Assembly (NCBI GenBank): GCA_964611475.1 | Contig: CAZTAB010000317.1 | Coordinates: 1-39,446 of the forward strand | Reading direction: 5' to 3' | Length of the DNA stretch: 39,446 nt | Source of the DNA: an uncultured Verrucomicrobiota bacterium | Lineage (GTDB): Bacteria; Verrucomicrobiota; Kiritimatiellia; SLOV01 | Part shown: positions 11,206 to 35,408 of the stretch, in pieces | Position numbering within the stretch: the first letter of the stretch is position 1 | How the letters are laid out: each line of letters opens with the position of its first letter | Program-made: the position numbers and the translations under genes | The notes under the pieces: generated by a model | What the model saw: only the letters and a program-made list of their open reading frames with translations | Databases searched by the model: none | What the model was told of the DNA's origin: nothing

Positions 11206-11499
11206 GAGGCCTCCCTATATCGGGGCATGACGGTATAGTTCGGCCTTGGTCGGTTGTAAACTCTTCTCTGCTCCAGGCAAACATTATACCCGTATAAGCA
11301 TGCGTACTTGCCGGAGAAAATCAGGCGAGTTCTGGCGATATGCACATCGCGAACCACGACCGGACCGACGAGAGCCTGAATGGCCCGCCAGAGTTCGGCC
11401 TGTTGTTCGGTGACGTGGATCTTGCCTGTGCATCGCATTCTTTATCACGCCCTGCCACGATCAGCTTGCATTCACCTCATCTCCACCTATAGTCGAAAG

Positions 11500-13299: not shown

Positions 13300-15216
13300 C
13301 TAAAGGTCCTCACCCTCGGACAATCCGTAGTACTCTCTCAACGCCTTGATGGCCACTGTGGTGTACGCCCCCTCCATGTACACATCAATGCCGTGCGCCT
13401 CACAAAGGTCAAACATCCGGCGAACCAAAGGGCGCAGGCCATTTTTCTCATCGGGCTTGAGAGGAACCAGCTCATTTTCCAGGGTGGTGTCCTTGATAAT
13501 CACCACGCGCCGCGGCGCCTCGATCGCGTTCCAGAACACCGGCTCGATAGCCAGCCGCAAGGCGGTAACCGAGATCTTTTCAACGCGATTCCGGATCTCG
13601 TTGTTCTCCGCCAGTTCCATTGCCTCCTCGAACAGCTCCAAGCCCCTTTCACCCAGTTTTGCGTCCAGCCCGCAGCTCTTCGGAGTGAAATTGATGTTCG
13701 TATGTTTCCCGGACGCCAGGGCCTGATCGTGCACCAGGTCGATCCAGCGCCGGATTGGATCCGACGCCTCGCCGTAGTACAGGCCCAAGAACTCATCGAT
13801 CAGGGTATCGGCGTCGAGGGATGGGTTCCAGATCAACGAGGAAGTCACATACGCCCGAAGATCGCTGAACTCCGTGTTCCGCGCCGGCCCCTGCAGAAAA
13901 ATCGCCTGCCCCCGGTTGCGCTCGAAACTTTTCATCTGGGGACCGATCGCACGCAGGTTCGGCGCAGGAAACAGGTAGTCCCTCGGATTCAGGTCATAGT
14001 GCCAGAAAAGCAGATTCTCGCAGAGCTTCCCCCACCCGTGCAGATACGGGACGGCCTTCCTGTTCACGGGACAGTCGGGATCCTCGAACGCATGCATAAC
14101 GCAGGCATGATACATCGCCATCTGCACTCTCACGTTCGGCAGGGCCCGCATCTTCCGGGGGGGCATCATGGACCAAGAGTAGGCCTCAGTGCCCACGAAG
14201 AGATCAGGACGTTCCTTCCCAACCTGCTCCGCAACGTGATTCACGAAGTCAATGATCACCGCGGAGGGGGGGCCGTTTGAAGGAATGAAGCCCATACCAA
14301 GCGGATTCTGAGCCGGCACGGGGATGTCTTCCGGCGCATCTCCCTCGCGCTGAATCTTAGCGCATCGACGGCACTCACATGCCCCTGGCGCATCGTTTTG
14401 CGCCAACGTGATCGAGTCGCCCTCCGAGTAGTTCGAAAGCTCGCCCAGGACGCGCTCAACGACCGCTTCCCGCACATAGGGATGCGACAGACATGGCTGC
14501 AGTCCTTGCCGCTTCCCCTCGTACAGGCAGTAGTGCTCGGGATTCACATCGAAGCTGCCGTGAAACTGGAAATTGTTGTGAAGGTACACGCCGCCAATCA
14601 CCTCGCCGCCGAGGTGCTCCGTCAGGCGGTGCTCCTCCGACGCGCCCCTGCCCGCCGCATTTTGCCTTCGCCGGACAGCAAAGTCCGGATGAAGCATAAG
14701 TTCCTGCTTCAGGTAAAGCCGGAAGGAAAACGGCGGCTGATAGGACCGGTCCACAGGAGCGATGTCCAGCGGAGAATCCATTTTAGGCACATGCGTCACG
14801 TCGGCAGTCAAAAACCGCACACCCAGATAGTCCTCCAAAAACGTGTACACCCCGTAGAGCGTCCCGCGCGGCCGTCCACCGGCGATCGCAATGTTGCCAC
14901 CCCGAACAACGATTCGAAGTTCCTCATCCCCCATGCCTTGGGTCCCAAATCCCGCCGAGCTCTTGAGCATGGCTTCGCCCGGGCCAATAAAAACATGGCG
15001 ATCTGGTCGATCCACAGCGCTCACGATCGGCAGCCGCAGGCCGGTTGCCTCGGCAAGGAACTCCTGGAATTCCTCCGCAGCATACCGCTCGCTGGGGATC
15101 GCATTTTCGGATACAACAATGTCCCACTCATCCGTGGAGGACACGTCCATCTTCATTGTGGAACAACCAAACGCCCCGATCAAAATAATCCCCGTCACCC
15201 ATCGAGCTACATTCAT
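13300..15216 (-). CDS. DUF4838-like secreted/lipoprotein, glycoside-hydrolase-like (paralogue A)
   Basis: ATG 15216 preceded by AGGAGA. Signal/lipobox-like N-terminus MNVARWVTGIILIGAFGC. Motifs IVVSENAIPSERYAAEEFQEFL, IAGGRPRGTLYGVYTFLEDYLGVRFLT, CECRRC. Clear paralogue of 23415-25274. Confidence 0.85.
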   Translation of the reverse strand: MNVARWVTGIILIGAFGCSTMKMDVSSTDEWDIVVSENAIPSERYAAEEFQEFLAEATGLRLPIVSAVDRPDRHVFIGPGEAMLKSSAGFGTQGMGDEELRIVVRGGNIAIAGGRPRGTLYGVYTFLEDYLGVRFLTADVTHVPKMDSPLDIAPVDRSYQPPFSFRLYLKQELMLHPDFAVRRRQNAAGRGASEEHRLTEHLGGEVIGGVYLHNNFQFHGSFDVNPEHYCLYEGKRQGLQPCLSHPYVREAVVERVLGELSNYSEGDSITLAQNDAPGACECRRCAKIQREGDAPEDIPVPAQNPLGMGFIPSNGPPSAVIIDFVNHVAEQVGKERPDLFVGTEAYSWSMMPPRKMRALPNVRVQMAMYHACVMHAFEDPDCPVNRKAVPYLHGWGKLCENLLFWHYDLNPRDYLFPAPNLRAIGPQMKSFERNRGQAIFLQGPARNTEFSDLRAYVTSSLIWNPSLDADTLIDEFLGLYYGEASDPIRRWIDLVHDQALASGKHTNINFTPKSCGLDAKLGERGLELFEEAMELAENNEIRNRVEKISVTALRLAIEPVFWNAIEAPRRVVIIKDTTLENELVPLKPDEKNGLRPLVRRMFDLCEAHGIDVYMEGAYTTVAIKALREYYGLSEGEDL

Positions 15217-19465: not shown

Positions 19466-19712
19466 TCTTACCCCCTTTTTATCTCTCTCATCCTCCAGAC
19501 AACGTGTACAGCCCCTCCCTGCCTGGCCCAACCCGACGGAATGGTAGAACAGGACCGGTGGCCCTGTCCATGAGCTTGAACAGGAGAATCAGGGTACATG
19601 ACAAACCGATACGATTGCTCCACTCCTTCCCTTCTCCAGCCCCGGGGGAGACACCCAATCCCCAGAGTGCCTCAATGGGCCTACAATCGATGTAGAGTGC
19701 GCATCCGTGAGT

Positions 19713-20546
19713 TCAGGGTCCCGGACGCCCCGCTCGCTCACGATTCACCCTCCACTGCTCGAACGTTTCAACCGAGCCCGGTTGGGCCCGGCTTCGGGCC
19801 ACGAACGCGGGATACTTATCAAAAAGCCATTCGAGGGGCTGCCCGGTTTCGCTGTAGCGCAAATCGATGCTCCAACGGACACCCTCGCTGGTATTTATGC
19901 CGGACGAATGAAAGGTCCTTGCCCCGAAAGCCAACACATCTCCCGGCTTCATCCAAACGTCCACGGGATGGCCTCGTGCCTCCACGTCCTCGTCGGGCAC
20001 CAGGGCGCGAACACCCTCCACCTTGTGTACCGGCAACACGCCCCAGGCATGACTGCCCGGAATCACCCGTATGCATCCGTTCCGCTCATCGACGTCGACC
20101 AACGGCAGCCAGAGGCTGAGGATCGGGACATCGTACGACCTCGGCCCGTAGTAGACGCAGTCCTGATGCCAAGGCAGTGAAGTCTGTCCTTCCCCCGGCA
20201 ATTTCGGGCGGACCCAAAAGTCACCATTCGCGGTAATCTCGGGCGTCCCGAGCAAATCCTCCGCGAGGTCAAGCAGCGCCGGGTGGCTCGCCAGGCCGTA
20301 AACAGGTTCACCGAAAACCTCTGAGTTCCAGCTCCGCTTCGTCTGGGCAACCTCCTGGTGCAGGACGGCCAAACGCCTCTCAAGCGGAAGGTCTTCACAC
20401 AGATCATTGATTTCGCCCGTCTCAAAGAGACACCGAGCCCGCTCGTCAACCACCGATTGGAGAACTTTTCGCAACGGATCGAAATCACTGTCGCAGAGCA
20501 CGCCGGGCGCCACCACATACCCGTTTTCGTCAAAAAAGCGCTTCAA
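19713..20546 (-). CDS. PhyH-family Fe(II)/2-oxoglutarate dioxygenase (paralogue 3)
   Basis: Motifs FFDENGYVVAPGVL, HxD in PWHQDCVYYG, NGCIRVIPGSHAWG, distal His in GDVLAFGARTFHSSGIN, WSIDLRY. Confidence 0.88.
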   Translation of the reverse strand: MKRFFDENGYVVAPGVLCDSDFDPLRKVLQSVVDERARCLFETGEINDLCEDLPLERRLAVLHQEVAQTKRSWNSEVFGEPVYGLASHPALLDLAEDLLGTPEITANGDFWVRPKLPGEGQTSLPWHQDCVYYGPRSYDVPILSLWLPLVDVDERNGCIRVIPGSHAWGVLPVHKVEGVRALVPDEDVEARGHPVDVWMKPGDVLAFGARTFHSSGINTSEGVRWSIDLRYSETGQPLEWLFDKYPAFVARSRAQPGSVETFEQWRVNRERAGRPGP

Positions 20547-20629
20547 GGGAAAATGCTCCTCTGGCTCGCCCCTTCAATTCTCCCGTCCGCCAGACGCGGC
20601 CGATCTCCAAACAGCCCGACAGATCATGC

Positions 20630-21613
20630 TCACGATCCGTACTCGTACCTGTACTCCACCGGACCGCCTGCAAGACAACGTTCAATCAATCGCGACTGGA
20701 GGACCCGCGCAAGACACATGGTCCGGTCCGCTGCGCCGTAATAGATTTTTAACTCGTCGGGTTCGCCGTGCGCTATCACCGCGGTGGGGAACACAACCAT
20801 CGGGCAGTTTCCGTTCATTTCATACGGCTCCTCCGGCCACATCAGGCACTCCTGCATCTTGCCGATAATCCGGGAAGGGTCCTCCAGATCAAGCAGCATA
20901 CACCCCATGGAGTACATCAGCCCGTTCATGTGCTCACGGCAGCCGTGGTACAGGACGAGCCAACCTTCAGGCGTCCGCAGCGGCACCGCGCCCGGCCCAA
21001 TTTTCGCGCTCTCCCAATACCGCGCGCCCTTCTGCAGCAGGATTTTCGTACGTCCCCAGTGCTCGAGGTCGGGAGAATAGGATATAAAAATCTCGCCGAG
21101 ATCCCCCTGTCCGTGAGGCCGCTCCAGACGAACATAGGCGTCATCGATCTTCTCCGGAAAGAGCACGCAGTTCCGATGATCCGGGCCCGTAAGGAACCCC
21201 AGATCCTCGATAGTCTCAAAATCCGTCGTCCGCGCCAGCCGGATTCTCCCGCCCGCGCCGGGCGCATAGGTGTTGTAGGTGATGTAATACGCGCCCGCAA
21301 GAGGTGTGATCCGGGTATCAAAAATTCCCGTGTCCGGTTGGTATGGATACTCCCTCGGCGGCTCGATCAGATCGCGGTCCTGGACTTCAAACCGAACGCC
21401 GTCCCGGCTCCGCGCGGCGAGGAAACGGGGAACAAACTCCGCGTCCCACGCGTTCACCAGCATGACAATCTGATCCCCGGCCACGACTGCGCCGCTGTTG
21501 AAGACGCACTGACCGCGGAACGGAAGATCCGCGACGGTCACAATCGGATTCGCGGACTCGCGAACAATTAAGCTCTGCTTTGTATCAACCACGCAAGTAG
21601 CAGAATTCTCCAA
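20630..21613 (-). CDS. GH130-family glycoside phosphorylase/hydrolase (beta-mannoside type fold)
   Basis: TTG start at 21613; in-frame TGA TGA lie just upstream. Motifs NPIVTV, VFNSGAV, ARSRDGVRFEV, YYITYN, LARTTDF, NCVLFPEKI, SYSPDLEHWG, KIGPGAVPL, GWLVLYHG, YSMGCMLLDLEDP, IYYGAAD. No signal peptide. Confidence 0.88.
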   Translation of the reverse strand: MENSATCVVDTKQSLIVRESANPIVTVADLPFRGQCVFNSGAVVAGDQIVMLVNAWDAEFVPRFLAARSRDGVRFEVQDRDLIEPPREYPYQPDTGIFDTRITPLAGAYYITYNTYAPGAGGRIRLARTTDFETIEDLGFLTGPDHRNCVLFPEKIDDAYVRLERPHGQGDLGEIFISYSPDLEHWGRTKILLQKGARYWESAKIGPGAVPLRTPEGWLVLYHGCREHMNGLMYSMGCMLLDLEDPSRIIGKMQECLMWPEEPYEMNGNCPMVVFPTAVIAHGEPDELKIYYGAADRTMCLARVLQSRLIERCLAGGPVEYRYEYGS

Positions 21614-21625
21614 GGACCCCGATCA

Positions 21626-21641
21626 TCAACGGCAACGTTGA
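21626..21641. promoter_or_regulatory. Inverted repeat TCAACG-GCAA-CGTTGA in the GH130 leader
   Basis: Perfect 6-bp arms, 13 nt upstream of the GH130 TTG start, in the 169-bp divergent region. Confidence 0.25.
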
Positions 21642-21751
21642 AAATGCAAGCCTACATTCGGCTCTGGTCATTTGCTTCACCCCCGGTGCCTTCCGGTCAA
21701 CCCAAGGCGACACAGAGTTCCGAAATCCAGAGTCCCTGAACTATTGGTTTT

Positions 21752-21768
21752 TTCAATGTTGGATTGAA
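21752..21768. promoter_or_regulatory. Inverted repeat TTCAAT-GTTGG-ATTGAA ahead of the beta-propeller operon
   Basis: Perfect 6-bp arms ending 15 nt upstream of ATG 21783, just before the G-rich SD. Confidence 0.25.
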
Positions 21769-21782
21769 TCGGGGGGGATTTC

Positions 21783-23384
21783 ATGAGAAGGAAAGCCATG
21801 ACCACGGCAACTCCGATCGATATCGGCGATCGAAAACAGTTATTTCTCGATGAGACATTCTTCGCCGCCCGCGACGGCGTAAATCTGACCGTACACTCGC
21901 CCGTGGACCGGGGGATTGCCATCCAGGCAGACCAGCCGTGGGAAAGCACTGCCGCCTGCAACTGGTGCGTTGTGGTGCACGACCCGAAACTCGGCCACGT
22001 CAAGATGTACTACGAGGCATACCGGGCGCTCCCCAGGAAATCGAACGGCCAGCCAAACTTTGACCGCCGGATGTGCTGTGCCATATCCCATGACGGCGTC
22101 CGCTGGGAGAAGCCAGACCTTGGCATCTATGAGTTCGAGGGCAGCCGCGACAACAATATCGTGTTCATGGGGGAAGAGGACGCGGAGTCCGCCGACGGCA
22201 TCGCCACCTCTGCCGGCCGCCGCGCCTATGACCAGATGGGGAGCGTCGTGATCGACGAGGACGACGAGCCTGGGAGGCGCTACAAAATGCTGTTCTGCGG
22301 GTCGGAGTGCAAAATGCGGGCAGCGACTTCCCCTGACGGATTCCGCTGGACGGTGCTCAATGATTGGAAGCCGGTCTCCGAACAGGGCGCAGATTCAGGG
22401 AACATTTTCTTCAGGGACGATTCCCTCGGCAAGTGGGTGGGCTATTTCCGAATGTGGGATGCCATGCGGCGCATCAGCCGAATCGAGACCGATGACTGGA
22501 CCGCATGGCCCAAGCGCTCCCGGGAAAACGTTATCCTCGGGCCCGACGAGCTGGATGCCTATGACAGGTACCTCGATGCGCCCTGCTTTCGGCCCGGCGA
22601 GTTCATAGACAACGTGATCGACGGACGGCGATACGATCCCGACGGCCCAAGGGAACGATTCGTCTGGTGTACCGACAACGTCGACCAGATCGACGGAATC
22701 GATTTCTACAACCAGCCGGTAACGAAATATACGCATGCGGACCGGGCCTATATCATGCCCTTCACCGCCTTCTGCCACCGGCCGAACCTGATGGAGATCC
22801 AACTGGCGATCAGCCGCGACGGCATTCACTGGAGCCGGCCGGGGAACCGCCAGGCATGGATTCGCCCACCCGTCGACGAGTTCGTCGGCGTCATGTATTG
22901 CGGGCCCGGGATGGTACAGGACGGTCCGCGACTCTACCACTACCACAGCTGTATGCCGGAATGGCACGGCTGGGGAAAACCGGGGCAGCACGAGATCGTT
23001 GAACCACCTCGATTCAGCGGATCGGTCCGCCGCGTGGAACTACGCCTGGATGGATACGTCTCGGCCGCCGCGGAAAACATGGAGGGCGGATTCGTCACTC
23101 CACCGTTCGTCTTCGAAGGAAGCCGGTTAGAACTGAACGTTGATACCGGGGCCAGTGGCCGGGTTGATGTCGAACTGGTTCGTGTCCACGGGGATCCGGT
23201 ACGGGGGTACCGGATCCCGGAGTTCGACCGGGAAAGTTGCGACACGATTGTTTGCAACGAAACCCGCCGAATCGTCACGTGGAATGGAAACAGCGACGTC
23301 TCCCCGCTTGCCGGCGTGCCCATCCGGATGCATGTGCGCATGCGCCGCGCCAACCTCTACGCGTTCCAGTTCGTAAAAGAGTGA
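21783..23384 (+). CDS. Asp-box beta-propeller + C-terminal beta-sandwich glycosidase-like protein, family not assignable (paralogue I)
   Basis: 533 aa with no signal peptide. N-terminus RKQLFLDETFF. Several SxDGxxW Asp-box-like motifs: SHDGVRWEKP, SPDGFRWTV, SRDGIHWSRP. C-terminal tail AGVPIRMHVRMRRANLYAFQF. Paralogous to 30920-32479, and more distantly to 29088-30611. Confidence 0.8.
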   Translation: MRRKAMTTATPIDIGDRKQLFLDETFFAARDGVNLTVHSPVDRGIAIQADQPWESTAACNWCVVVHDPKLGHVKMYYEAYRALPRKSNGQPNFDRRMCCAISHDGVRWEKPDLGIYEFEGSRDNNIVFMGEEDAESADGIATSAGRRAYDQMGSVVIDEDDEPGRRYKMLFCGSECKMRAATSPDGFRWTVLNDWKPVSEQGADSGNIFFRDDSLGKWVGYFRMWDAMRRISRIETDDWTAWPKRSRENVILGPDELDAYDRYLDAPCFRPGEFIDNVIDGRRYDPDGPRERFVWCTDNVDQIDGIDFYNQPVTKYTHADRAYIMPFTAFCHRPNLMEIQLAISRDGIHWSRPGNRQAWIRPPVDEFVGVMYCGPGMVQDGPRLYHYHSCMPEWHGWGKPGQHEIVEPPRFSGSVRRVELRLDGYVSAAAENMEGGFVTPPFVFEGSRLELNVDTGASGRVDVELVRVHGDPVRGYRIPEFDRESCDTIVCNETRRIVTWNGNSDVSPLAGVPIRMHVRMRRANLYAFQFVKE

Positions 23385-23414
23385 ACAGGATTGTTTCCAG
23401 ACAAAGTCTGCGAG

Positions 23415-25274
23415 ATGAAAACCCTCATGAAAAATCGAGATGCCTTGCTCCTTGCAGGCCTGGTCGTTCTTGAATCAGGAACGGCTGCAGCTAGGGCGGA
23501 GCCTTCACCACAGACTTTTCAAGACTGGAACCTCGTCGTCGCAGAAAATGCAATTGCTTCCGAGATCTATGCAGCGGAAGAGTTCCAGCGCTTATTCTTC
23601 GATGCAACGGGTATCAAACTTCCCGTGAGCCGGGATTTTTCCGGAGGAACAAACAGCTTTTTTATCGGAGCCAGCAATGCCCTGACCGAAAGCGCACTCG
23701 GTCACGCCATGAATGACCCGCTCGCGTCGGATGATATCCGCCTTGTGGTTGCAGAGGGAAACGTTGCCATCCTCGGCGGGCGGCCCCGCGGAACGCTGTA
23801 CGCCGTGTACCAGTTTCTGGAGGACCGGCTCGGCGTCCGGTTTTTGACCCGGGACCACACTCATGTGCCAAACCTCCGCGACCCCGGAATCCTGCGGGAA
23901 AAGGATCTGCTTCGACCGCTCGACTACACCCATCGCCCCCAGCTCAAGTGCCGCCTGATCTACTACACGGACGTCATGGATCAACCGGAATTTTCCGCCC
24001 GCCTACGCGTGAACGCCACAGCGCCGGGGTTCTTGTCGAAGCACGAAGAGCGAGCAAGGAAAATTGGCGGCTTCGTGGATCCGAATCCGTTTCTTCTTCT
24101 TCACTCCGTCGGATCATGGGCAAACGGCATCAACAAGGAAAGAGACCCCACGGTCATGGCTTTGTGGAACGCGGCCCGGAGCCCGAATCAGCCCTGCCTG
24201 AGCCATCCGGATGTAATCGAGGCGGTCACCCGAAATGTCAAGGCAGCGGCGAGAAAGGCGGCCCCGGGCAGCCTCCTCCGAGTCGTGCAGGAGGATGCTC
24301 CGAGATGCGAGTGCGACCGGTGCAGGGATGTCTGGGCCCAGCACGGCGACAAGGCTTCTGCCGTCGTGATCCGGCTGGTCAACCACCTCGCCCGGGAACT
24401 GTCGGCAATGGGCCGACCCGACATCACGGTTGGAACCCTGGCCTATGCCTGGTCAGCTCAACCGCCGGACGATCTTCCCGTGGAACCGGGTGTCCGCATC
24501 CAGTTCGCCACCTACCACGGCTGCCTGCAGCATGGATACAGATGCCCCGAATGCCCAACGAACATGGGGATGCACGCCGACATTCAACAATGGAGGCAAT
24601 TGTGCGACGACCTCATCTTCTGGCACTACACGCTAAATTTCTCCGACTACCTCCAGCCACCCGTCAACGTCGAAAGCCTTGGCCTGCAATTAAAGGCCAT
24701 GCACGACACCGGCACGAAGGGAATCTTCCTGCAAGGCCCCGGGTCCGGAATAAACGCGCCGTTCGCGGACATGGTCATCTACGTGGCCGCTCACCTGTTA
24801 TGGGACCCAAACATCGATCCCATGCGACTGGTCAACGAGTTCGTGGACCTGCACTACGGGTCGGCCACACCGCACATTCACGAGTTTCTCGCCCTCATAA
24901 GGCGAACGCTTCAAAACAATCCGGGACACTCGAACTGCAACGGCCACCTCCGGGAGTGGGGCCTGTCCCCGGACGTGGGGTTTCAAGGAATCGAGATATT
25001 CAACCGCGCACTTGCGACGGCGGATTCCCACCATGTGCGCGCCCGCGTGGAAAAGGCGTCCATAGGTGCCTATCGACTCGCCCTTGGAACGTACTTCAAA
25101 AACGAGGAGCCGGTTCCGGAAGAGAAACGGGGAACAATCCGGGACCTGGCGCGAACCCTCTTTCAACTGACTGATGTTCACAACGTGGCGGAGTATTTGG
25201 AAGGCAGGCGCATGGATGTCGCAAAAAGGAATGTGCGCAAAGCATTGGGAATGGCGGAGGACGAGGCATTCTGA
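23415..25274 (+). CDS. DUF4838-like secreted protein, glycoside-hydrolase-like (paralogue B)
   Basis: ATG 23415 gives the signal peptide MKTLMKNRDALLLAGLVVLESGTAAARA. Motifs LVVAENAIASEIYAAEEFQRLF, LGGRPRGTLYAVYQFLEDRLGVRFLT, CECDRC. Starts 30 nt after the upstream gene's stop. Confidence 0.85.
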   Translation: MKTLMKNRDALLLAGLVVLESGTAAARAEPSPQTFQDWNLVVAENAIASEIYAAEEFQRLFFDATGIKLPVSRDFSGGTNSFFIGASNALTESALGHAMNDPLASDDIRLVVAEGNVAILGGRPRGTLYAVYQFLEDRLGVRFLTRDHTHVPNLRDPGILREKDLLRPLDYTHRPQLKCRLIYYTDVMDQPEFSARLRVNATAPGFLSKHEERARKIGGFVDPNPFLLLHSVGSWANGINKERDPTVMALWNAARSPNQPCLSHPDVIEAVTRNVKAAARKAAPGSLLRVVQEDAPRCECDRCRDVWAQHGDKASAVVIRLVNHLARELSAMGRPDITVGTLAYAWSAQPPDDLPVEPGVRIQFATYHGCLQHGYRCPECPTNMGMHADIQQWRQLCDDLIFWHYTLNFSDYLQPPVNVESLGLQLKAMHDTGTKGIFLQGPGSGINAPFADMVIYVAAHLLWDPNIDPMRLVNEFVDLHYGSATPHIHEFLALIRRTLQNNPGHSNCNGHLREWGLSPDVGFQGIEIFNRALATADSHHVRARVEKASIGAYRLALGTYFKNEEPVPEEKRGTIRDLARTLFQLTDVHNVAEYLEGRRMDVAKRNVRKALGMAEDEAF

Positions 25275-25392
25275 CCGCTGCGGCGGAAGATCACCCGGAG
25301 GCGCTACCGCAGGAGGCACGGGTTGACCGCATTCTTCCGCGGGGAGACCGCATGATGCCAAGTATATTACAACATGTTAAAGGTTGAATGAA

Positions 25393-26085
25393 ATGATGCA
25401 GAAATCAGATTCTATCGCACCGGAACTCGTTGAATCCTACCGCCAAGATGGTTTCCTGATCGTTCGGAACCTCTACGATCCCACCGTCATGTCGGATTGG
25501 AAGCGGAAAATCATCGAAATCATGCGCGCGGACGGCACGATTAACGATCCGGTTGGGGTGCGGGTCTGGCAACACGAAGCATTGGACTCCGAGTTGCTTC
25601 GAGGCATGGCCGATCCCAAGGTGGTCTGCATCCTGCAGGCCCTGACCAATCCATGCGTCGAGTTTCTAAGCGGCAAGGCCGTATTCAAATCAGCCGACAC
25701 CGATTTCGCATCCCCATGGCACCACGACTGGGCATACTGGAAAGGCACGCACAAGATCTCGATCTGGATTGCCCTGGATCCGGCCGACCGGTCGAACGGA
25801 TGCCTGAAAATGATCCCCGGGAGCCACCGAAAAGCCATGAAGTGCAACTTCACGGAGGAGGGCATCGGCTTTGGCTGGCGGGTCGACCAGGCGGCGGTGG
25901 ACCGACTACCGCTCGAGGTTATCGAAGTGAGTTCAGGCGACGCGGTCTTCTTTCACGACCTCACGGTTCATGCCTCCTACCCCAACACAGCGAAGAAGGA
26001 CCGCTGGTCCTTCATCGCGACTTACAGGGACGCGTCGATTCCAGACGAGTCGACGGTGTGGAAGTCGGGGATGCCAGTGACATAG
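25393..26085 (+). CDS. PhyH-family Fe(II)/2-oxoglutarate dioxygenase (paralogue 4)
   Basis: ATG 25393, with AAGG ~9 nt upstream; the track start 25384 is TTG. Motifs GFLIVRNLY, HxD in PWHHDWAYWKG, NGCLKMIPGSHRK, distal His in GDAVFFHDLTVHASYPN. Confidence 0.88.
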   Translation: MMQKSDSIAPELVESYRQDGFLIVRNLYDPTVMSDWKRKIIEIMRADGTINDPVGVRVWQHEALDSELLRGMADPKVVCILQALTNPCVEFLSGKAVFKSADTDFASPWHHDWAYWKGTHKISIWIALDPADRSNGCLKMIPGSHRKAMKCNFTEEGIGFGWRVDQAAVDRLPLEVIEVSSGDAVFFHDLTVHASYPNTAKKDRWSFIATYRDASIPDESTVWKSGMPVT

Positions 26086-26088
26086 CCC

Positions 26089-26110
26089 GAGGGTCCGGCC
26101 CGGCACCCTC
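26089..26110 (+). terminator. GC-rich hairpin just after the PhyH paralogue 4 stop
   Basis: GAGGGT (26089-26094) pairs with ACCCTC (26105-26110). The loop is itself GC-palindromic. No U-tract. Sits in a 314-bp convergent gap. Confidence 0.3.
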
Positions 26111-26399
26111 AGAACTCGCAGCTTGATGCCAAGATGCGAAACGTCGTCATGCAAAGGTCCTACTGCACAGGCCCTCCGTGATCCTGCTCATTCCCGTCGC
26201 ATTGCAGCAATCGAAAAGAACACGGGATTCGGGCAGGACTTGTCCCCCACGTCCCCCAGAGATAGATCGTCAGATGGTTTGTGTGGGCACTCTAGCTAAA
26301 ATTTACTCCAATAAAGTTCCCAATCACGCCGGAAAAAGGCCTCGTGTCCGATATCCTTCCAAAGGAACCTACGTGAAACGAGTTGTCGCTTCAGGGCTC

Positions 26400-27290
26400 T
26401 CATTTCCCCGTCCGCGATTCCGCCGCCTTCCTGTACTCCCCGGGCGTTTCGCCACGTAAGTGCGGCTCCAAAATGTCTTCGGTACCCTTGTATGCGTAGG
26501 GATCTTCCCCGCATACCATGACGATGTCGCGCATGTCTTCTTTCAACTCAAGGCGGCCGCTGCAACCCCAAGGCAACAGCGACTCGGCGCTCATGGCGTG
26601 AACAACCAGGGCCCGGCGGAACCGATCCCTCGTCGTGTTGTCGAGGGACCGGTGCAGCAGGTACCCATTAAAGAAGATCACAGACCCCTTTCTTACATTG
26701 ACCGGAACAGCGTCCTCTTCGCTGTGTGGGAAACCGTATGAGCTCTGGGTGGGGCCGGAAATCCTCGGATCCCGGTTCGGCCCCATCTGCCAAAGAACAC
26801 CCGAACGGTGCGAGCCGGGAATGACCCACAGTCCCCCGTTCTCCACATCCGCATCGTCCAGGGCGACCCACACTCCGCACAGCGAACGGTCCCGCGTCGG
26901 AACGAAGTACTCGTCCTGATGCCAGCCCTGACCCCGGTTGCCAGGGCCCTTCACGAAAAACTGCGTCTGCATGCACTTGACGTTGGGGCCAATAATCGAC
27001 TGAAGAACACGAACGATCGCGGGATGCCGAATGAAGTCATGAATGATCCCGGAAACCTTGTGCGGATAGTGCAAAGCGAGATATCGGTCGAGTGTTGTCT
27101 CTTCAGATTCACCGGGATCGCCCGGACTCACGCCCCGGATGTCCGCGCGGCCCCTGAATAGAGCCAAAGCCTCCTGCAGCAAAGGGAGTATTTCCCCCCC
27201 TGGAATCAACTCATCGGCAACCACATACCCATTCTCTCGATAGAAATCGGCGTGAGCCACTTGAACATTTCCTCCGGAAATTCTCATCAC
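26400..27290 (-). CDS. PhyH-family Fe(II)/2-oxoglutarate dioxygenase (paralogue 5)
   Basis: GTG at 27290 is followed immediately by ATG at 27287. Motifs FYRENGYVVADELI, HxD in GWHQDEYFVP, NGGLWVIPGSHRSG, distal His in GSVIFFNGYLLHRSLDN. Confidence 0.88.
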   Translation of the reverse strand: MMRISGGNVQVAHADFYRENGYVVADELIPGGEILPLLQEALALFRGRADIRGVSPGDPGESEETTLDRYLALHYPHKVSGIIHDFIRHPAIVRVLQSIIGPNVKCMQTQFFVKGPGNRGQGWHQDEYFVPTRDRSLCGVWVALDDADVENGGLWVIPGSHRSGVLWQMGPNRDPRISGPTQSSYGFPHSEEDAVPVNVRKGSVIFFNGYLLHRSLDNTTRDRFRRALVVHAMSAESLLPWGCSGRLELKEDMRDIVMVCGEDPYAYKGTEDILEPHLRGETPGEYRKAAESRTGK

Positions 27291-27378
27291 CTACCAGAGC
27301 CTACCAAGAAGGCGTTCTTTCGACAAGACAGGCCGGGATGTCATGACAGATCTCCCCGTCTTACCCAATAAATGTCGA

Positions 27379-28416
27379 TCAGGAGCAGGAAGGCTCCGAG
27401 TCCCCCCACTCCAACGGCATCACCATGTTCCACGCATTCTTGGCACCGACAAATCCATTGTTCCCGTCGGATGTGGCGCAGAAAAGATGTGTGGGAATGC
27501 CGTTTCGGATCAGTAGCTGGGGCCGCTCCACCGATCCTTGCGTCGTCACGGTTCCGTCCGACCATCTCACCCTGCGGGAATAGGCTTTCGAAGGATCATT
27601 CAGACGCCAATGGACTCCATCGCCGGAAATCGCGTGCGCGCCCGCACGCGCTTCGCCCGTAAAAACCCCAGACAAGTCGTTGAACAGCATCTGAAACTGG
27701 TCACCCTGCAGCCAGACGTAGGCGTCCTCGTAGGCAACGTCAGGTTGATCAAATACGATCGGGCCGTCGGGGCCGACTCGCCGAAACGGCCCCATAGGAG
27801 ACTCCGCTTTCGCAACGCCGTACCGGATCGGGCCCGCAGCGGCGCCAGACGATTTGTACAGCAACAGAATCCCGCCGTTGGGAAGCACACAGGGCGCGGG
27901 GTTGGTCATCATGAACGAGTCCCAATGCCCGGAGCGGGGTTCCAGGCAGGGACCATCCGGTCTCCGCCAGGGTCCCTCCGGGGACTCCGCAACAGCCAGT
28001 CCGATCCGTTGCCGGGACCGGCACGCCTGATACATCTCTTCTGAAACCACGTCCCCGGGCCCGGGAGGCGGTTCCAAAAACGTTGTCCCCGTATAGAACA
28101 GAAGATAAAGATCGTTCCAGCGGTGAATGGTCGGATTGTGCGTCATGCGTCCATCCCAAAAGGATGCGTGGCGCGGCGGCAAGACATCCCCGCAGTATGT
28201 ATAGGGTCCTTCCGGCACCGGACTCTCGGCGCGGACAATCCTGGAGCTGGTCAACCAGTTGGGCGCAAACGGAACCGATTTCTCCCATGCGGAAGCGAAC
28301 ATATGAAAAAGGCCACAGTCGTCCTCCACAACGGAACCACACCAGGTCCAGAAATCCTCCATACGAAACCCGCCATCAATAAGCGCGGGTCGAATTCGTT
28401 CGATCAATGGTCTCAT
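27379..28416 (-). CDS. Five-bladed beta-propeller glycoside hydrolase-like protein (GH43/GH117-like clan)
   Basis: Likely start is ATG 28416 (MRPLIERI); the track ORF extends to 28521. Blade motifs: WCGSVVEDDCGLFHMFAS, HNPTIHRWNDLYLLFYTG, IGLAVAESPEGPW, NPAPCVLPNGGILLLYK, YGVAKAESPMGPF, EDAYVWLQGDQFQMLF, SGDGVHWRL. No signal peptide. Confidence 0.8.
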   Translation of the reverse strand: MRPLIERIRPALIDGGFRMEDFWTWCGSVVEDDCGLFHMFASAWEKSVPFAPNWLTSSRIVRAESPVPEGPYTYCGDVLPPRHASFWDGRMTHNPTIHRWNDLYLLFYTGTTFLEPPPGPGDVVSEEMYQACRSRQRIGLAVAESPEGPWRRPDGPCLEPRSGHWDSFMMTNPAPCVLPNGGILLLYKSSGAAAGPIRYGVAKAESPMGPFRRVGPDGPIVFDQPDVAYEDAYVWLQGDQFQMLFNDLSGVFTGEARAGAHAISGDGVHWRLNDPSKAYSRRVRWSDGTVTTQGSVERPQLLIRNGIPTHLFCATSDGNNGFVGAKNAWNMVMPLEWGDSEPSCS

Positions 28417-28688
28417 CACAGCCTGATTGGTTCCGATCTCCATCCTGCCCGCGAGTCCTGCCGTACACTGCACGCCGAGCCGAAAGCCGGATCTTCTCCC
28501 CTGTCGTAAGCCCCGCCACACGCTTTGTCGATACCGGGATCAACAATATGCGCGACGACCGCGCAGCTCCAGGGCCTTCGTCAAGGGCCCAAGGAGTTGA
28601 CCGGAAGGATCTAATTCAGGTAGTTTCCCGCCTGGCATCGGGGACCATGGACTGCCATGCCAAACACTCAAACCCAGGAGACATAACG

Positions 28689-29069
28689 ATGAAAATATTG
28701 GCCTTGATTTTGACCCTCACCGCAGGAGTCGTCCTTTTCCAGAATACCGCAATCGCGGGATGTGGCGTCTGTGACGTCAAGAAGAAGTCAAAAACCGCCT
28801 ACCAAGAAGTCAAGGGAGCCAAGCAGGTAAAAGCCGAGGTCGGCTGCGCGAAGTGCATCTACAGCAAGAAAGGCGAGAAAGGGTGCAGGACCGCCGTCAA
28901 GATCGACGACAAGGTCTACATGTTGAAGGCCGCCGCCAAAGAAGGTGAGTGCAACGCACACAAAGAGGGGCTCTGCAAAACCAAAAAGAAGGCAACCCTG
29001 AACGGGAAAGTCGTCGATGACAAATTCCTCGCGACCAAGGTGGAAATCCAGAAAAAAACTAACGGCTGA
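28689..29069 (+). CDS. Small secreted Lys/Cys-rich protein (resembles the DUF6370-type pattern)
   Basis: ATG 28689 preceded by AGGAG with ~9-nt spacing. Signal peptide MKILALILTLTAGVVLFQNTAIAG. The mature part, VGCAKCIYSKKGEKGCRTAVKIDDKVYML...ECNAHKEGLCKTKKKATLNGKVVDDKFLATKVEI, has six Cys plus His. The family recall is from memory and tentative. Confidence 0.7.
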   Translation: MKILALILTLTAGVVLFQNTAIAGCGVCDVKKKSKTAYQEVKGAKQVKAEVGCAKCIYSKKGEKGCRTAVKIDDKVYMLKAAAKEGECNAHKEGLCKTKKKATLNGKVVDDKFLATKVEIQKKTNG

Positions 29070-29087
29070 CACACCGCGACAACGGCT

Positions 29088-30611
29088 CTACACCTGGCCG
29101 AATTGAAACGCATAGATGCGCGCGTTTTGAAATTGAACATGTAACTGGATGGGCTTGCCTGCGACCTCCGGGGCAATGTGTTCCCGCCCGCCCCACACGA
29201 CCGGCGCGTGGATTGCATCTTCGGCCAGGGGCAGGCAGTCGTCGAAGGTGTATCCCGGGACCGGCTTGCCGTCCTCGACGGAAACCAGTTGTGCCCGCAG
29301 CAGAACATCGGCGCCAAGTGGTTCTAGGTTCAGGAGCAGCCGCCCGCCCCCAATCAGCAGCGGTCTGGTAATGAATTGCCCTCCACCGGGATCCGCCTCA
29401 ATCCCGACAATCCGGTCACGCTTGAACGTGACCCGCCCGACCCGACTCACGGGCGTGTACGGCAGCTCGATCGGCCGGGAACCGGAGTGCGGACCGTCTC
29501 CCGATCGGTAGTACAGCGCAAGGGTGTCCTTGTCGATCTCCACAAATCCGGGGGCCACGGATACAATGAAGCAGTCGAACGCGCCTTCCGGCCCCAGGGG
29601 GATGAACGTTTCGCGCGTGGCCCGGAACCAGTTGCGGTTGTCCCGGCTGGTGCAAACCTGCACTTCGAATGTGCCCTCGTAGTGTCGGTAAAAAGACGGG
29701 AACATGAAATGCAGGCGGGGTGAATTCGGATACCGGGAATAGGCGCTGTTGTAGATGTCGGTGTTCAACCCGTCGAGGGAATCGGCCTGCAAAGCAACGC
29801 CGGTGCTCCGCCAGTTCCGGTAATCAGACGATTCCAGCCGCCCCACCGCCCGACCCCGGCCCGTTGAAGGAACCCGGTAGTCTCCGGCTTCAACCCCTCC
29901 GTACTGTGCAGAGGTACGATGATAGGCCACGTACCGTTCCAGCGTCCCATCCCAACTCACCGTATTTTGCGAGTCACAGTACCGGCCAAGAAAATTGTCA
30001 TAGTACCTCGTCCACTGGAGCCCGTCCGGCGACGCCGCGCCGCGCAGGAAACCAACGTTGTGGGTGAACGGGAGCTCGAATGCCTCCGGACCGCCCCAAT
30101 CCGTGTAGATCATCTTGTAGCGTTCACCCTCCAGGGCGTGGGGATCGACAAACACCATCCCCAATTCCGGGCTGACCCCATTCATACCGCCATCGAACAC
30201 CACGTTATTGTCGGTCGACCCTGAGGGATCGACCTGCCCGGGATTCCGGCGTACGAATTCCAGACCGTCCTTCGACTCGGCATAACTGACGTACATCCCC
30301 CTCCTGGCCTTCCGGCTGGAGTTGTACCACATCCTGTAGATCCCCCCCTCGCGCAACACACAAAGCCAGGCGCTCGATTTCTCCCTTGGCGCCTGCCCCT
30401 CGAACAGGGCCCCCGGATGCTTCTCCACCCGCCCCACGCTCCACCGTATCCCGCGCGGATACTGCTCTGCGTTCCGCCCGAGCGAAAGAAGAAAGTCATC
30501 GACCAGCAGCTGACGCTCCGTCCCGACATCGACCGGATGGTCGCACCACGGACCCACATGCGTGTTAACCGCGAGGTTAAAGTTTTTCATATCGTGTCCG
30601 ATGACAGCCAT
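29088..30611 (-). CDS. Asp-box beta-propeller + beta-sandwich glycosidase-like protein (distant paralogue III)
   Basis: 507 aa, ATG 30611, no signal peptide. N-terminus ERQLLVDDFLL. Motifs SKDGLEFVRR...STDNNVVF and SPDGLQWTR. The C-terminal tail AGKPIQLHVQFQNARIYAFQF matches the tails of 21783-23384 and 30920-32479. Confidence 0.8.
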   Translation of the reverse strand: MAVIGHDMKNFNLAVNTHVGPWCDHPVDVGTERQLLVDDFLLSLGRNAEQYPRGIRWSVGRVEKHPGALFEGQAPREKSSAWLCVLREGGIYRMWYNSSRKARRGMYVSYAESKDGLEFVRRNPGQVDPSGSTDNNVVFDGGMNGVSPELGMVFVDPHALEGERYKMIYTDWGGPEAFELPFTHNVGFLRGAASPDGLQWTRYYDNFLGRYCDSQNTVSWDGTLERYVAYHRTSAQYGGVEAGDYRVPSTGRGRAVGRLESSDYRNWRSTGVALQADSLDGLNTDIYNSAYSRYPNSPRLHFMFPSFYRHYEGTFEVQVCTSRDNRNWFRATRETFIPLGPEGAFDCFIVSVAPGFVEIDKDTLALYYRSGDGPHSGSRPIELPYTPVSRVGRVTFKRDRIVGIEADPGGGQFITRPLLIGGGRLLLNLEPLGADVLLRAQLVSVEDGKPVPGYTFDDCLPLAEDAIHAPVVWGGREHIAPEVAGKPIQLHVQFQNARIYAFQFGQV

Positions 30612-30919: not shown

Positions 30920-32479
30920 TCAGACGAATTGAAACGCGTACAACTTCGCGTTTCGCATCCGAACGTGCATCCGCACAGGCTTGCCGGCGAGGGAGGAAAC
31001 ATCCTCGTTGCCGTTCCAGCTCACCACGCGAGCGATGGAGTTGCACACGACCTGGTCACACTCCCCGATGGAAAAGTCCGAGACACGGGGCATCCAGGCG
31101 GCGGCGTCCGATTCCACTCTCTCGAGGCCAATCTCGACCAGACCTCGCGCACCGGTATCCGCATTCAACTCGAGACGGCTCCCTGAAAAAACAATGGGAG
31201 GCGTGACAAACTGTCCGCCAGCGTTTCCGGCATCGGCAGACAAATATCCGTCCAGCCGGAGCCGGGCGCGGTGAATAGACCCAACGTATGGCGGGCTCGG
31301 GGCCTTCTCATACACACCGGGCTTGCCGTGGTGATGCCAGCTGTCCATCCGGATGTAGTAGTGGTCAATCCAGTGACCGGTGCGGAGAACCCCGGGTCCG
31401 CAGTAGAGAATACCAGCATGCTCATCGATGGGGGGTCGAATCCAGGCCTGCCGGTCGCCCGGTCGTTCCCAGCGAATGCCGTCACGACTCACCGCGAGCT
31501 GAATTTCCTCCAGGTTCGGACGATGCGCCAGGACAGAAAACGGCATGATGAACACTCGATCCGCCCACGGATACTGCGTGACTGGCTGATTGTAGATGTC
31601 CGTGCCACTCAGATCCTCCAGCTTGTCTGTTCCCCAGATGAATTCTTCCTCCGAGGCATTCGGGTCAAACCGTTTCATCGCCGGCGATCTATCGAACGCC
31701 ACGCCTGGCATGAAACCCGGCCCATGCACCGAGCCATCACGCTCGTCCAATTCGTCGGGCTCCAGGACCACGTTCTTGGGCTCAAGGAACGGCCAGGACC
31801 AGAAATCGTCGGTCTCCACGCGACAGACGCATCGCGTAGGAGCCCAAAGCCGAAAATACCCGACCCACCGGCCCAGATGCTTGTCCCAGAGAACCACGTT
31901 CTGGGAATCAGACACCGCCTTGCTGACGGGTTCCCCGTTATTGCCGACGGTCCAGCTGAATCCGTCGGCCGAATAGGCCCCGAAAATTCCGTGAGGCATG
32001 CCCATGTAAATCGTCTTGTAACGGCGCTCGGGCGTGTCGTTCTCGTCGATCAGCACGCGACCCGGTTCATGAAAACCATGCGGCGGCCCGTTCGAATCGG
32101 CCTGCATGACAATGTTGTTCTCAGTGCTGCCATCAAATTCGCAGACACCAAGGTTCGGCTTCTCCCATTGGACACCGTCTTCCGAAGTGGCGCAGCAGAG
32201 CCGAAAACAGGAATTGCCCTTCCCCTTCGGATCGTCCGGAAGCGTTTCAATCGTGAGGTAGTACAGCTTGACATGCCCCGCGACCGGATCGGGCAACAGG
32301 TCGCAAAAGCTGACAATTCCTCCGTTCTCCCACGGGCGGTCGGCGTGGAGAACCTCTCCGGCATCGACCGGCGGGTTCAGGGTCAGCGTAATGCCCTGTT
32401 GATGGGCAAAAAAAAGATCGTCTACAAACAGCTGTTTCCGGCTGGCAACATGAATGGGGAACTGGCTCTCCGGATCCAT
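30920..32479 (-). CDS. Asp-box beta-propeller + beta-sandwich glycosidase-like protein (paralogue II)
   Basis: Likely start is ATG 32479 (MDPESQF), with GGAGGAG 6 nt upstream; the track ORF runs to 32668. Motifs RKQLFVDDLFF, SEDGVQWEKPNLGVCEFDGSTENNIVM, SADGFSWTV, SRDGIRWERP. Tail AGKPVRMHVRMRNAKLYAFQFV. Confidence 0.82.
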   Translation of the reverse strand: MDPESQFPIHVASRKQLFVDDLFFAHQQGITLTLNPPVDAGEVLHADRPWENGGIVSFCDLLPDPVAGHVKLYYLTIETLPDDPKGKGNSCFRLCCATSEDGVQWEKPNLGVCEFDGSTENNIVMQADSNGPPHGFHEPGRVLIDENDTPERRYKTIYMGMPHGIFGAYSADGFSWTVGNNGEPVSKAVSDSQNVVLWDKHLGRWVGYFRLWAPTRCVCRVETDDFWSWPFLEPKNVVLEPDELDERDGSVHGPGFMPGVAFDRSPAMKRFDPNASEEEFIWGTDKLEDLSGTDIYNQPVTQYPWADRVFIMPFSVLAHRPNLEEIQLAVSRDGIRWERPGDRQAWIRPPIDEHAGILYCGPGVLRTGHWIDHYYIRMDSWHHHGKPGVYEKAPSPPYVGSIHRARLRLDGYLSADAGNAGGQFVTPPIVFSGSRLELNADTGARGLVEIGLERVESDAAAWMPRVSDFSIGECDQVVCNSIARVVSWNGNEDVSSLAGKPVRMHVRMRNAKLYAFQFV

Positions 32480-32562
32480 CTTCATCTCCTCCGTTTTCTC
32501 ATGGTGTCTCGCCGAAAATATACCGAGTCGAAGACCAGAACAAAGATTATTTTCGTGCGGCC

Positions 32563-33069
32563 CTAATCCAAATCTAGACGATATGTCTTCTCGGAGGAAT
32601 AGCCGTCTGGATCGAAGAGGATCTTCATTCCGCCATCGCCCATGACACGTCCGCCGGTGTCGGTCCAAGGGCCGCCGCCGGCTCCGTTGTCCGAGCGTTC
32701 AAGTCGATACAGGACGCCCTGCTGCGTGGCAATGTTGAATCCGTGCGTCTCGATGATGCGCGTGCTCTTGATCGAGAACTCGGGCGGCGCCGTAACGACG
32801 TTGAAGGGAGTCGCTCCGCCCCCTTGGTCCGTATCGAAGTCAAACACGGACTCGTCCATCGCGTTCCCGGCAAACAGACCGTCGCGGCTGAAGGAGTAGA
32901 CTCCGGTGCTCGCCCTGTGAACCGGATTCCCATTGCTGGCGAAAGGCTGGTTCACGCCTGACAAATCCTCCCACTGCATCGCCGGGCGTCCAGGGACAAA
33001 AGGAGGCCCGATTTCCCGCGCAGCGCAAAAAAACCCGCCCACAAAACGACCGAAACCACAGCCAGGCAA
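32563..33069 (-). CDS. Hypothetical protein, possibly secreted; 5' end uncertain (possible frameshift at an A7 tract)
   Basis: 168-aa ORF from TTG 33069. C-terminal pattern GVLYRLERSDNG...KTYRLDLD. A signal-peptide-like ORF in another frame (ATG 33104 or 33125) meets this frame at A7, positions 33027-33033. Confidence 0.5.
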   Translation of the reverse strand: MPGCGFGRFVGGFFCAAREIGPPFVPGRPAMQWEDLSGVNQPFASNGNPVHRASTGVYSFSRDGLFAGNAMDESVFDFDTDQGGGATPFNVVTAPPEFSIKSTRIIETHGFNIATQQGVLYRLERSDNGAGGGPWTDTGGRVMGDGGMKILFDPDGYSSEKTYRLDLD

Positions 33070-35097: not shown

Positions 35098-35408
35098 GTG
35101 CCGAACCACACAATGGGCGGCTTCCTTTATTTCACTACGGCGGGATCATCCATTCACGCGGTTTAACGACAATTGGCAATCTCTGACCTTGTGCTCCGTG
35201 GAAGTCGCATGGTAGTTGTGAAGAGGGTTTTATTTTAAAGCGAGGAGGCCTCCACAGGTACAGTTCCGGGCATTCAGCCGCGAAACAACGGAGTACGAAC
35301 TCCGCCTTTACGATGACCCAAGCTTCGGGTCCACGATGCCAATGTAAAGGAGCAGATCCTGACGCCTCACAAAGGGAAAGGCCGAACACTCCCGGGCCGA
35401 ATGAAGAC

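Follow-up and report, generated by a model that had tools for sequence, protein, structure and literature searches.

We analysed a 39,446-nucleotide stretch of DNA (contig CAZTAB010000317.1 of assembly GCA_964611475.1; hereafter the window) from an uncultured bacterium of the Verrucomicrobiota, in which genes of the PhyH dioxygenase family lie among genes for glycosidase-like proteins. The window carries six PhyH genes and seven glycoside hydrolase (GH)-like genes among about 30 genes, and this local density of both families is its true anomaly. Three of the PhyH genes fall within a 9-kb region that appears to be the core of a carbohydrate-active enzyme (CAZyme) gene cluster extending from about 7.7 to 38.7 kb; the other three lie elsewhere in the window. 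Across the cluster, the six PhyH genes are interspersed with genes for predicted cytoplasmic propeller proteins (one GH130, three of a family that we call prop, and one GH117/43-like) and for two predicted exported, hexosaminidase-like DUF4838 proteins of the GH163/185 type. Our leading interpretation, which we hold tentatively, is that the PhyH proteins are interchangeable accessory dioxygenases that tailor imported sugars, and that the neighbouring GH and PhyH genes do not encode pairs of cognate enzymes. We regard the association of GH and PhyH genes as a testable lead and do not claim a demonstrated system.

PhyH paralogs and their partners in the window

All six PhyH proteins exceed the gathering threshold of PF05721 (22 bits), and they are predicted to be Fe(II)/2-oxoglutarate (2OG) dioxygenases of the PhyH family. 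They are mutually only 21-28% identical, and the residues H170, D172, H251 and R262 (PhyH1 numbering), which make up the iron-binding HxD...H triad and a predicted 2OG-binding arginine, are invariant across all six. The triad contains an aspartate and is thus not of the HxA/G type of the halogenases. The low identity together with the retained triad and arginine indicates that these are old paralogs, catalytically intact as far as their residues tell, rather than recent duplicates. Inspection of the N-termini found no signal peptide in the PhyH, GH130, prop or GH43/117-like proteins.

Comparison with solved structures matched the PhyH3 profile to PHYH (E 1.3e-23) and the PhyH4 profile to EctD (E 3.1e-18), and placed PhyH5 nearest to PHYHD1 (E 1.8e-18) and PhyH. 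The solved relatives are chemically diverse, including PHYH, PHYHD1, EctD, MysH, halogenases, SnoK, SnoN and EvdO1/2, and a methylphosphonate hydroxylase model was also among the matches. Given this diversity, specificity is not transferable from these relatives to the PhyH proteins of the window. Matches to TIGR04324 and TIGR04436 were weak and far below the cut-off.

A first-pass annotation of the window had described three tightly spaced co-directional units in the 9-kb region, and we found their open reading frames (ORFs), strands and gaps to be as described. On the minus strand, GH130 (20630-21613) is followed across a gap of 83 nt (20547-20629) by PhyH3 (19713-20546; PF05721 E 1.9e-27, 97.4 bits), which begins with a TTG codon after GAGGAG. 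On the plus strand lie prop1 (21783-23384), DUF4838 B (23391/23415-25274, with the ATG at 23415 as the likely start) and PhyH4 (25384-26085; Pfam E 2.3e-26, 93.8 bits). The start of PhyH4 is ambiguous between 25384, 25393 and 25396, and a database protein 100% identical to it has 229 aa. The preceding gap of 109-118 nt (25275-25383) includes an AT-rich stretch just before the gene. The distance between prop1 and DUF4838 B, first given as 30 nt, becomes 6-30 nt depending on the start chosen. The last unit, again on the minus strand, consists of a propeller gene (27379-28521, likely start ATG at 28416) and PhyH5 (26400-27290; Pfam E 4.6e-35, 122.3 bits), which are 88 nt apart (27291-27378). Most of the original gene labels were upheld, since PhyH3, PhyH4, PhyH5, GH130 and DUF4838 all score above their Pfam cut-offs; the two that were not are "GH43-like", for the propeller gene of the last unit (28.7 against a cut-off of 32.2 bits), and "Asp-box propeller", for prop1, which has no Pfam match.

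The GH130 protein reached 137.3 bits on PF04041 (E 7.5e-40, cut-off 26), and its solved relatives include TM1225 (E 1e-55), UhgbMP (E 4e-48) and RaMP2, with beta-1,4-mannooligosaccharide phosphorylase among the best. Its alignment with TM1225 retains the DxR, RN, RP, YHG and YSxG motifs, and the NCBIfam mannobiose phosphorylase models match it only below cut-off. It is predicted to be a cytoplasmic, beta-mannoside-phosphorylase-like enzyme. The propeller gene upstream of PhyH5 matches PF04616 only over residues 122-190, and its best solved relatives are GH117 anhydro-alpha-L-galactosidases (E 2e-7, partial). We therefore do not place it in GH43 and describe it as a sub-threshold GH117/GH43-like five-bladed propeller, probably cytoplasmic.

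The two DUF4838 proteins, 36% identical by BLASTP, score 163.3 bits (B, E 1.1e-47) and 190.1 bits (A, E 7.2e-56) on PF16126 (cut-off 26.6). The N-terminus of DUF4838 A contains a lipobox-like AFGC motif, and Sec-type signals were seen in DUF4838 B and in a pyrroloquinoline quinone (PQQ)-like protein of the window. A comparison by sequence gave no solved relative. DUF4838 supplies the catalytic domain in both GH163 (BT1035) and GH185 (Sp_0475) and is internally very diverse; BT1035 is an endo-beta-N-acetylglucosaminidase (endo-beta-GlcNAcase) acting on complex N-glycans and Sp_0475 is a 6-sulfo-GlcNAcase (PMC10570127). DUF4838 B is a putative exported beta-hexosaminidase of the GH163/GH185 type (GH20-like).

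The prop family has neither a Pfam nor an NCBIfam model, and three paralogs occur in the window. Prop1 combines a five-bladed beta-propeller-like domain with a C-terminal beta-rich domain, and two further genes on the minus strand match the prop hidden Markov model (HMM): prop2 (29088-30611), which is 26% identical to prop1 (E 5e-27), and prop3 (30920-32668), which is 51% identical. The family is very large: at E<=1e-3 it comprises 11802 representative clusters, and at the stricter E<=1e-30 still 1777. Its profile weakly matches PDB 6n1a (a "carbohydrate-binding protein", E 2e-9), GH130 phosphorylases, GH32 fructosidases and GH117, and 46 members gave just stray sub-threshold Pfam matches. An AlphaFold2 model of prop1 based on an alignment of the three window paralogs was unusable (predicted local distance difference test score of 32). 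Judged by these profile matches, prop is best described as a putative unclassified member of the five-bladed propeller superfamily GH32/43/117/130 with a C-terminal beta-rich domain, and it has the look of a glycoside hydrolase or phosphorylase family not yet classified.

Terminators between the paired genes, which the first-pass annotation had named as evidence against coupling, were looked for in the three GH-PhyH gaps and no terminator-like site was found. The gaps also fold no better than shuffled sequence (z-scores of +1.09 for GH130-PhyH3, +0.52 for DUF4838 B-PhyH4 and -0.11 for GH43/117-like-PhyH5) and hold no unusually stable hairpin. The sequence thus leaves co-transcription unrefuted, and each of the three GH-then-PhyH pairs probably forms a short transcription unit or consists of neighbours under common regulation. 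On the relevant strand, the region contains a single promoter-like match (19541-19570, minus strand), located in the 181-nt gap (19532-19712) that separates PhyH3 from the gene of the secreted PQQ-like propeller. Promoter consensus is uninformative for this phylum; the position of the match is consistent with PhyH3 closing its unit.

The pairing had also been held to exceed chance. When class labels were permuted over the approximately 30 gene slots of the window, this was borne out for co-directional order, with three GH-then-PhyH pairs against 0.67 expected (p=0.014), but not for plain adjacency, with four GH-PhyH neighbours in any orientation against 2.8 expected (p=0.29). Since the pattern was chosen after the data had been seen, the p-value of 0.014 is suggestive only. 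The same arrangement of prop, GH130 and PhyH3 was found on a 4.5-kb contig from ENA (L183), an independent contig from the same population.

Gene neighbourhoods of PhyH relatives

From the three pairs, the first-pass annotation had argued for a recurring, functionally coupled module, and it had named a lack of enriched adjacency among related genomes as evidence against this. Such a lack is essentially what we found for the three specific pairs. A GH43-like partner was found beside PhyH5 in none of 78 relative loci, made up of eight at 66-77% identity (L001-4 at 77%, L005-8 at 66%) and 70 anchored genome loci at about 50%. Likewise, GH130 accompanied PhyH3 in 0 of 82 relative loci (five that were looked up and 77 anchored metagenome loci, the latter collapsing to 59 groups at 90% identity). 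Among the PhyH4 relatives examined, none had a DUF4838 catalytic domain alongside. The PhyH4 relatives of about 50% identity stand in varied surroundings: one adjoins two AXE1 genes, PcRGLX and GH127 (L014), another a melibiase-like gene, heparinase II/III, AraC and AP_endonuc_2 (L182), and a third has unannotated neighbours (L016). A conserved pair of GH and PhyH genes is therefore not what we observe. Because the pairs are not kept in other genomes, they represent a loose neighbourhood association rather than a fixed two-enzyme module.

A PhyH4 relative of 70% identity (L017-19) has only small ORFs on its flanks, with matches to the DUF4838 tail. These are intact ORFs of 112 and 85 aa (L017:1827-2165 and L017:3556-3813, also present in L018 and L019), and they match the last 80-100 residues of DUF4838 B (77%, window 25040-25274) and DUF4838 A (66%, window 13300-13550). 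This C-terminal part of DUF4838 falls outside the Pfam domain and appears to be a separate module travelling with PhyH4.

The subfamilies differ greatly in size. PhyH5 belongs to a very widespread and well-conserved one, with 5325 relatives at E<=1e-10 and sequence identity of about 50% across Chloroflexota, Bacteroidota, Actinomycetota, Armatimonadota and the Planctomycetes-Verrucomicrobia-Chlamydiae (PVC) group; its best named relatives come from metagenome-assembled genomes (MAGs) of Phycisphaeraceae (66%). The PhyH3 subfamily is small, with 125 proteins, and PhyH4 has 76 relatives.

One recurrent feature around these relatives is the presence of further PhyH genes. At least two PhyH genes were present in 42 of the 173 PhyH-carrying loci. 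For PhyH3-like genes, another PhyH gene was the commonest neighbour (it occurred in 23 of 77 loci and made up 21 of the 160 neighbours within two genes on either side), followed by LamG, short-chain dehydrogenase/reductase (SDR), Gfo/Idh/MocA, sugar permease of the ATP-binding cassette (ABC) type and AraC genes. Contigs with GC contents from 0.38 to 0.58 carry three to five PhyH genes within 20 kb or less. Sugar-related genes accompany several of these clusters: GH28 and polysaccharide lyase family 11 (PL11)-like genes stand beside three tandem PhyH genes in L106, a pectate-lyase-like gene occurs in L114, and rhaM and an HpcH aldolase lie amid three PhyH genes in L009. In addition, a CUT1-type ABC transporter is found immediately upstream of PhyH in Caldilineaceae (L010/11). 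TauE sulfite exporters and class-V aminotransferases are also among the neighbours of PhyH genes.

The dense multi-PhyH clusters come from unrelated marine contigs (L106, L114, L122, L099 and L009). L106 has five PhyH genes by HMM and a weak sixth by Pfam, and L114 has five among 10 ORFs. A class-V aminotransferase with a twin-arginine translocation (Tat) signal also occurs beside multi-PhyH clusters.

Around PhyH5 orthologs (L020-L098), the commonest neighbour was a divergent AraC-type regulator of about 279 aa at position -1, in 14 of 70 loci. AraC was absent from the genes listed six to seven positions away, and in the window no AraC-type regulator stands beside PhyH5.

Genes of the prop family meet PhyH3-like genes in four independent loci. 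In L137, a gap of 20 nt separates prop from the PhyH3-like gene that directly follows it. A GH32/43-like propeller is flanked by PhyH genes in L122 and L130. In L120 the order is GH127-like, prop, prop, RHGA-like, a 757-aa ORF and PhyH3-like. This 757-aa ORF (L120:7678-9951, plus strand), which is recorded in NCBI, Logan and ENA, joins a PhyH domain (residues 12-213) to a prop domain (308-755) in one reading frame. We do not count it as a proven gene fusion because it forms a singleton cluster and because its linker carries a twin-arginine-like signal motif, SRRSFVKATTIAALAMHAGAGLV; a lost stop codon is the alternative. We treat it as a case of tight adjacency. Searches that started from prop gave no further association: none of the best 150 representatives of the family contains a PhyH domain, and a tblastn search of plasmids with prop1 returned one uninformative Isosphaeraceae plasmid match with no PhyH nearby.

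Proposed function and competing explanations

In the proposed scheme, exported hexosaminidase-like enzymes would act first, cytoplasmic exo-acting propeller enzymes would then process the imported oligosaccharides, and the cytoplasmic Fe(II)/2OG dioxygenases would serve as interchangeable accessories acting on sugar-derived molecules. Each PhyH paralog may insert a hydroxyl group at a C-H bond of a sugar or oligosaccharide product taken up into the cytoplasm, and this step could remove or convert a blocking decoration (O-methyl, amino or sulfate) or ready the product for central metabolism. We infer a carbohydrate substrate and a chemistry of this kind as the most likely role of the PhyH proteins in the window. 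PhyH genes behave as members of clusters, both with each other and with genes for sugar uptake and catabolism, and it is plausible that PhyH dioxygenases are loosely linked to neighbourhoods of glycan catabolism, a link that recurs with many CAZyme folds. Speaking for the favoured interpretation are the density of both families, the intact active-site residues, the missing signal peptides of the PhyH and propeller proteins, the co-directional order, the terminator-free gaps, the multi-PhyH loci with their sugar-related neighbours, the adjacency of prop and PhyH, and solved relatives of the PhyH fold that act on sugars.

More specific chemistries were considered, namely oxidative cleavage of glycosidic bonds, O-demethylation, KanJ-like deamination following deacetylation by carbohydrate esterase family 4 (CE4) enzymes, and AtsK/TauD-like desulfation, besides simple hydroxylation. 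We claim none of these, as they rest on scattered neighbours (four URO-D-like genes, an S-methyltransferase, two TauE genes, two sulfatases, two CE4 genes and DegT).

Several observations weigh against accessory dioxygenases acting on imported sugars. All relative loci were picked through their PhyH genes, with no unbiased genome-wide baseline. The GH families listed around PhyH5 relatives were no commoner one gene away (three beta-helix/GH120 and two sulfatases) than six to seven genes away (two GH31 and two fucosidases), and one PhyH4 relative of about 50% identity (L179) has an unrelated context with a DNA polymerase III neighbour. The GH-PhyH gaps of 83-118 nt are ambiguous, as they exceed those of the clearly coupled pairs in the window (-4 nt between two CE4 genes and 6-30 nt between prop1 and DUF4838 B). 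Furthermore, DUF4838 B has a signal peptide and would be exported, while PhyH4 has none and would be cytoplasmic, so these two proteins cannot share a compartment.

The main competing explanation, which we rank slightly below the favoured one and regard as a serious possibility, is that the pairing is a by-product of density. Two independently expanded families would have been packed into a flexible island, and the PhyH substrates would be unrelated to the neighbouring genes, for example osmolytes, amino acids, sulfonates or phosphonates, or isoprenoid lipids. The unremarkable count of plain adjacencies fits this well, as do the absence of every pair across more than 160 relative loci, the near-versus-far comparison without GH enrichment, the chemical range of the solved relatives (EctD, MysH, PhyH, halogenases and the methylphosphonate hydroxylase model) and the TauE sulfite exporters and class-V aminotransferases among the neighbours. 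Chance packing is harder to reconcile with the co-directional order, with the CAZymes and sugar transporters that recur beside PhyH clusters on many unrelated contigs, and with the adjacency of prop and PhyH, including their shared single ORF.

We consider two other explanations very unlikely. If each GH and its downstream PhyH formed a cognate two-enzyme unit acting consecutively on the same glycan, a conserved module would be expected; the three co-directional pairs with short, terminator-free gaps and a suggestive p-value, and the second GH130-PhyH3 pair in L183, an independent contig of the same population, speak for such units, yet the model is largely refuted by the missing synteny of the PhyH5 and PhyH3 pairs, by PhyH4 relatives that have no adjacent DUF4838 catalytic domain, and by the separate compartments of DUF4838 B and PhyH4. 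The island might instead build or remodel the surface glycans of its own cell, with the PhyH proteins as biosynthetic tailoring oxygenases like the 2OG oxygenases of the 'sporadic carbohydrate cluster'. A DegT aminotransferase, two CE4-like deacetylases, an SDR and a flavin adenine dinucleotide (FAD) oxidase in the window would suit this role, and the sub-threshold TIGR04324 and TIGR04436 matches point the same way, but at scores far below the cut-off. Against it, Pfam scans of about 40 window ORFs revealed no glycosyltransferase, flippase or polymerase, and the partner enzymes have degradative folds (GH130 phosphorylase, GH163/185-type and GH117-like).

The favoured interpretation, sugar tailoring by accessory dioxygenases, has a working analogy in porphyran degraders, whose glycan-utilisation loci include a cytochrome P450 6-O-methyl-D-galactose demethylase (PMC6292453, PMC9400963). 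There, as may be the case here, an oxygenase encoded amid glycosidases removes a decoration that blocks catabolism. The window differs in that its oxygenases are non-haem Fe/2OG enzymes instead of a P450 with redox partners, and in that it shows neither formaldehyde-detoxification genes nor a conserved GH partner.

Several members of the PhyH family itself act on sugars: SnoK, SnoN and EvdO1/2 oxidise C-H bonds of sugar moieties. These enzymes of nogalamycin (SnoK/SnoN) and orthosomycin (EvdO1/EvdO2) pathways share the Pfam family of the window proteins and are among their solved relatives, but they are distant (profile E 1e-8 to 1e-17) and belong to biosynthetic contexts, whereas the window has no polyketide or glycosyltransferase genes. 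The best solved matches, PHYH, PHYHD1 and EctD, have the facial triad in common with the window PhyH proteins; the window has no genes of CoA-ester or ectoine pathways, and identity is too low to indicate specificity. The window GH130 and DUF4838 proteins resemble enzymes of beta-mannoside and N-glycan degradation (UhgbMP, TM1225, BT1035 and Sp_0475), for whose systems a PhyH partner is not reported.

As a whole, the window is reminiscent of the CAZyme clusters of Planctomycetota. In Phycisphaerae, more than half of the GH genes are reported to be co-localised (PMC11131199). Such clusters and the window alike bring together GH-like genes of several families at high density, with no SusC/SusD. 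The roughly 40 ORFs scanned include neither a TonB-dependent receptor nor a member of the SusD family, and the window is accordingly not a polysaccharide utilisation locus of the Bacteroidota type with its SusC/SusD-like pair. Unlike the Planctomycetota clusters, the window interleaves six PhyH genes with its CAZymes; a full-text search found no PhyH in such clusters, and no association of PhyH with CAZymes was described in the literature searchable in this way. If real, the association would be a fresh variation on what is known of glycan clusters that include oxidative enzymes in an auxiliary role.

A broader proposal, which we think unlikely although worth stating, is that PhyH dioxygenases form an unrecognised auxiliary class in marine glycan catabolism. 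Multi-paralog clusters in Planctomycetota and other marine bacteria would then oxidatively strip or convert decorations (O-methyl, amino or sulfate) in the cytoplasm, alongside the prop family. If true, marine carbon turnover would gain a step of oxidative "de-decoration" like that of the P450 sugar demethylases, and a role would be found for an oxygenase family that ranks among the most abundant unassigned ones in ocean metagenomes. The analysis also flags prop, with its approximately 11,800 representative clusters, as an apparent unclassified glycoside hydrolase or phosphorylase family.

Other features of the window

The GC content of the window is even, at about 59%. Taken with the Phycisphaeraceae matches of PhyH5, a single protein, this would point to a planctomycete of the class Phycisphaerae as the probable source of the DNA, which differs from the lineage given for the assembly. 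Upstream of the 9-kb region lie PhyH1 (7704-8660, minus strand; PF05721 E 2.1e-27), the DegT aminotransferase gene (9922-11205; Pfam E 1e-64), PhyH2 (11380-12588, plus strand; Pfam E 1.3e-14) and DUF4838 A (13300-15216, minus strand), the lipoprotein-type paralog of DUF4838 B. PhyH2 is divergent from the DegT gene and convergent with DUF4838 A. PhyH6 (37935-38729, plus strand; Pfam E 6.4e-38) is the last of the six paralogs. The two CE4-like deacetylases, of which one falls short of the Pfam cut-off, are also in the window, as are the secreted PQQ-like propeller, the SDR and the FAD oxidase.

A DUF6370 protein (E 7e-15) is encoded at 28407-29069 on the plus strand, with a likely start near 28692. 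It is small, secreted and rich in cysteine and lysine, and its gene separates the GH43/117-like gene from prop2 and runs opposite to both. At the start of the window, an ORF at 78-1796 (plus strand) joins a chorismate-binding domain to a class-IV aminotransferase. This is a fusion of the PabB-PabC type for p-aminobenzoate synthesis, an ordinary gene that marks the housekeeping boundary of the island. Finally, an FA_desaturase gene (35313-36536) is found upstream of PhyH6 at a distance of 1.4 kb that includes a single unknown ORF, and in a Verrucomicrobia MAG (L044) a desaturase 59% identical to it stands directly upstream of a PhyH5-like gene.

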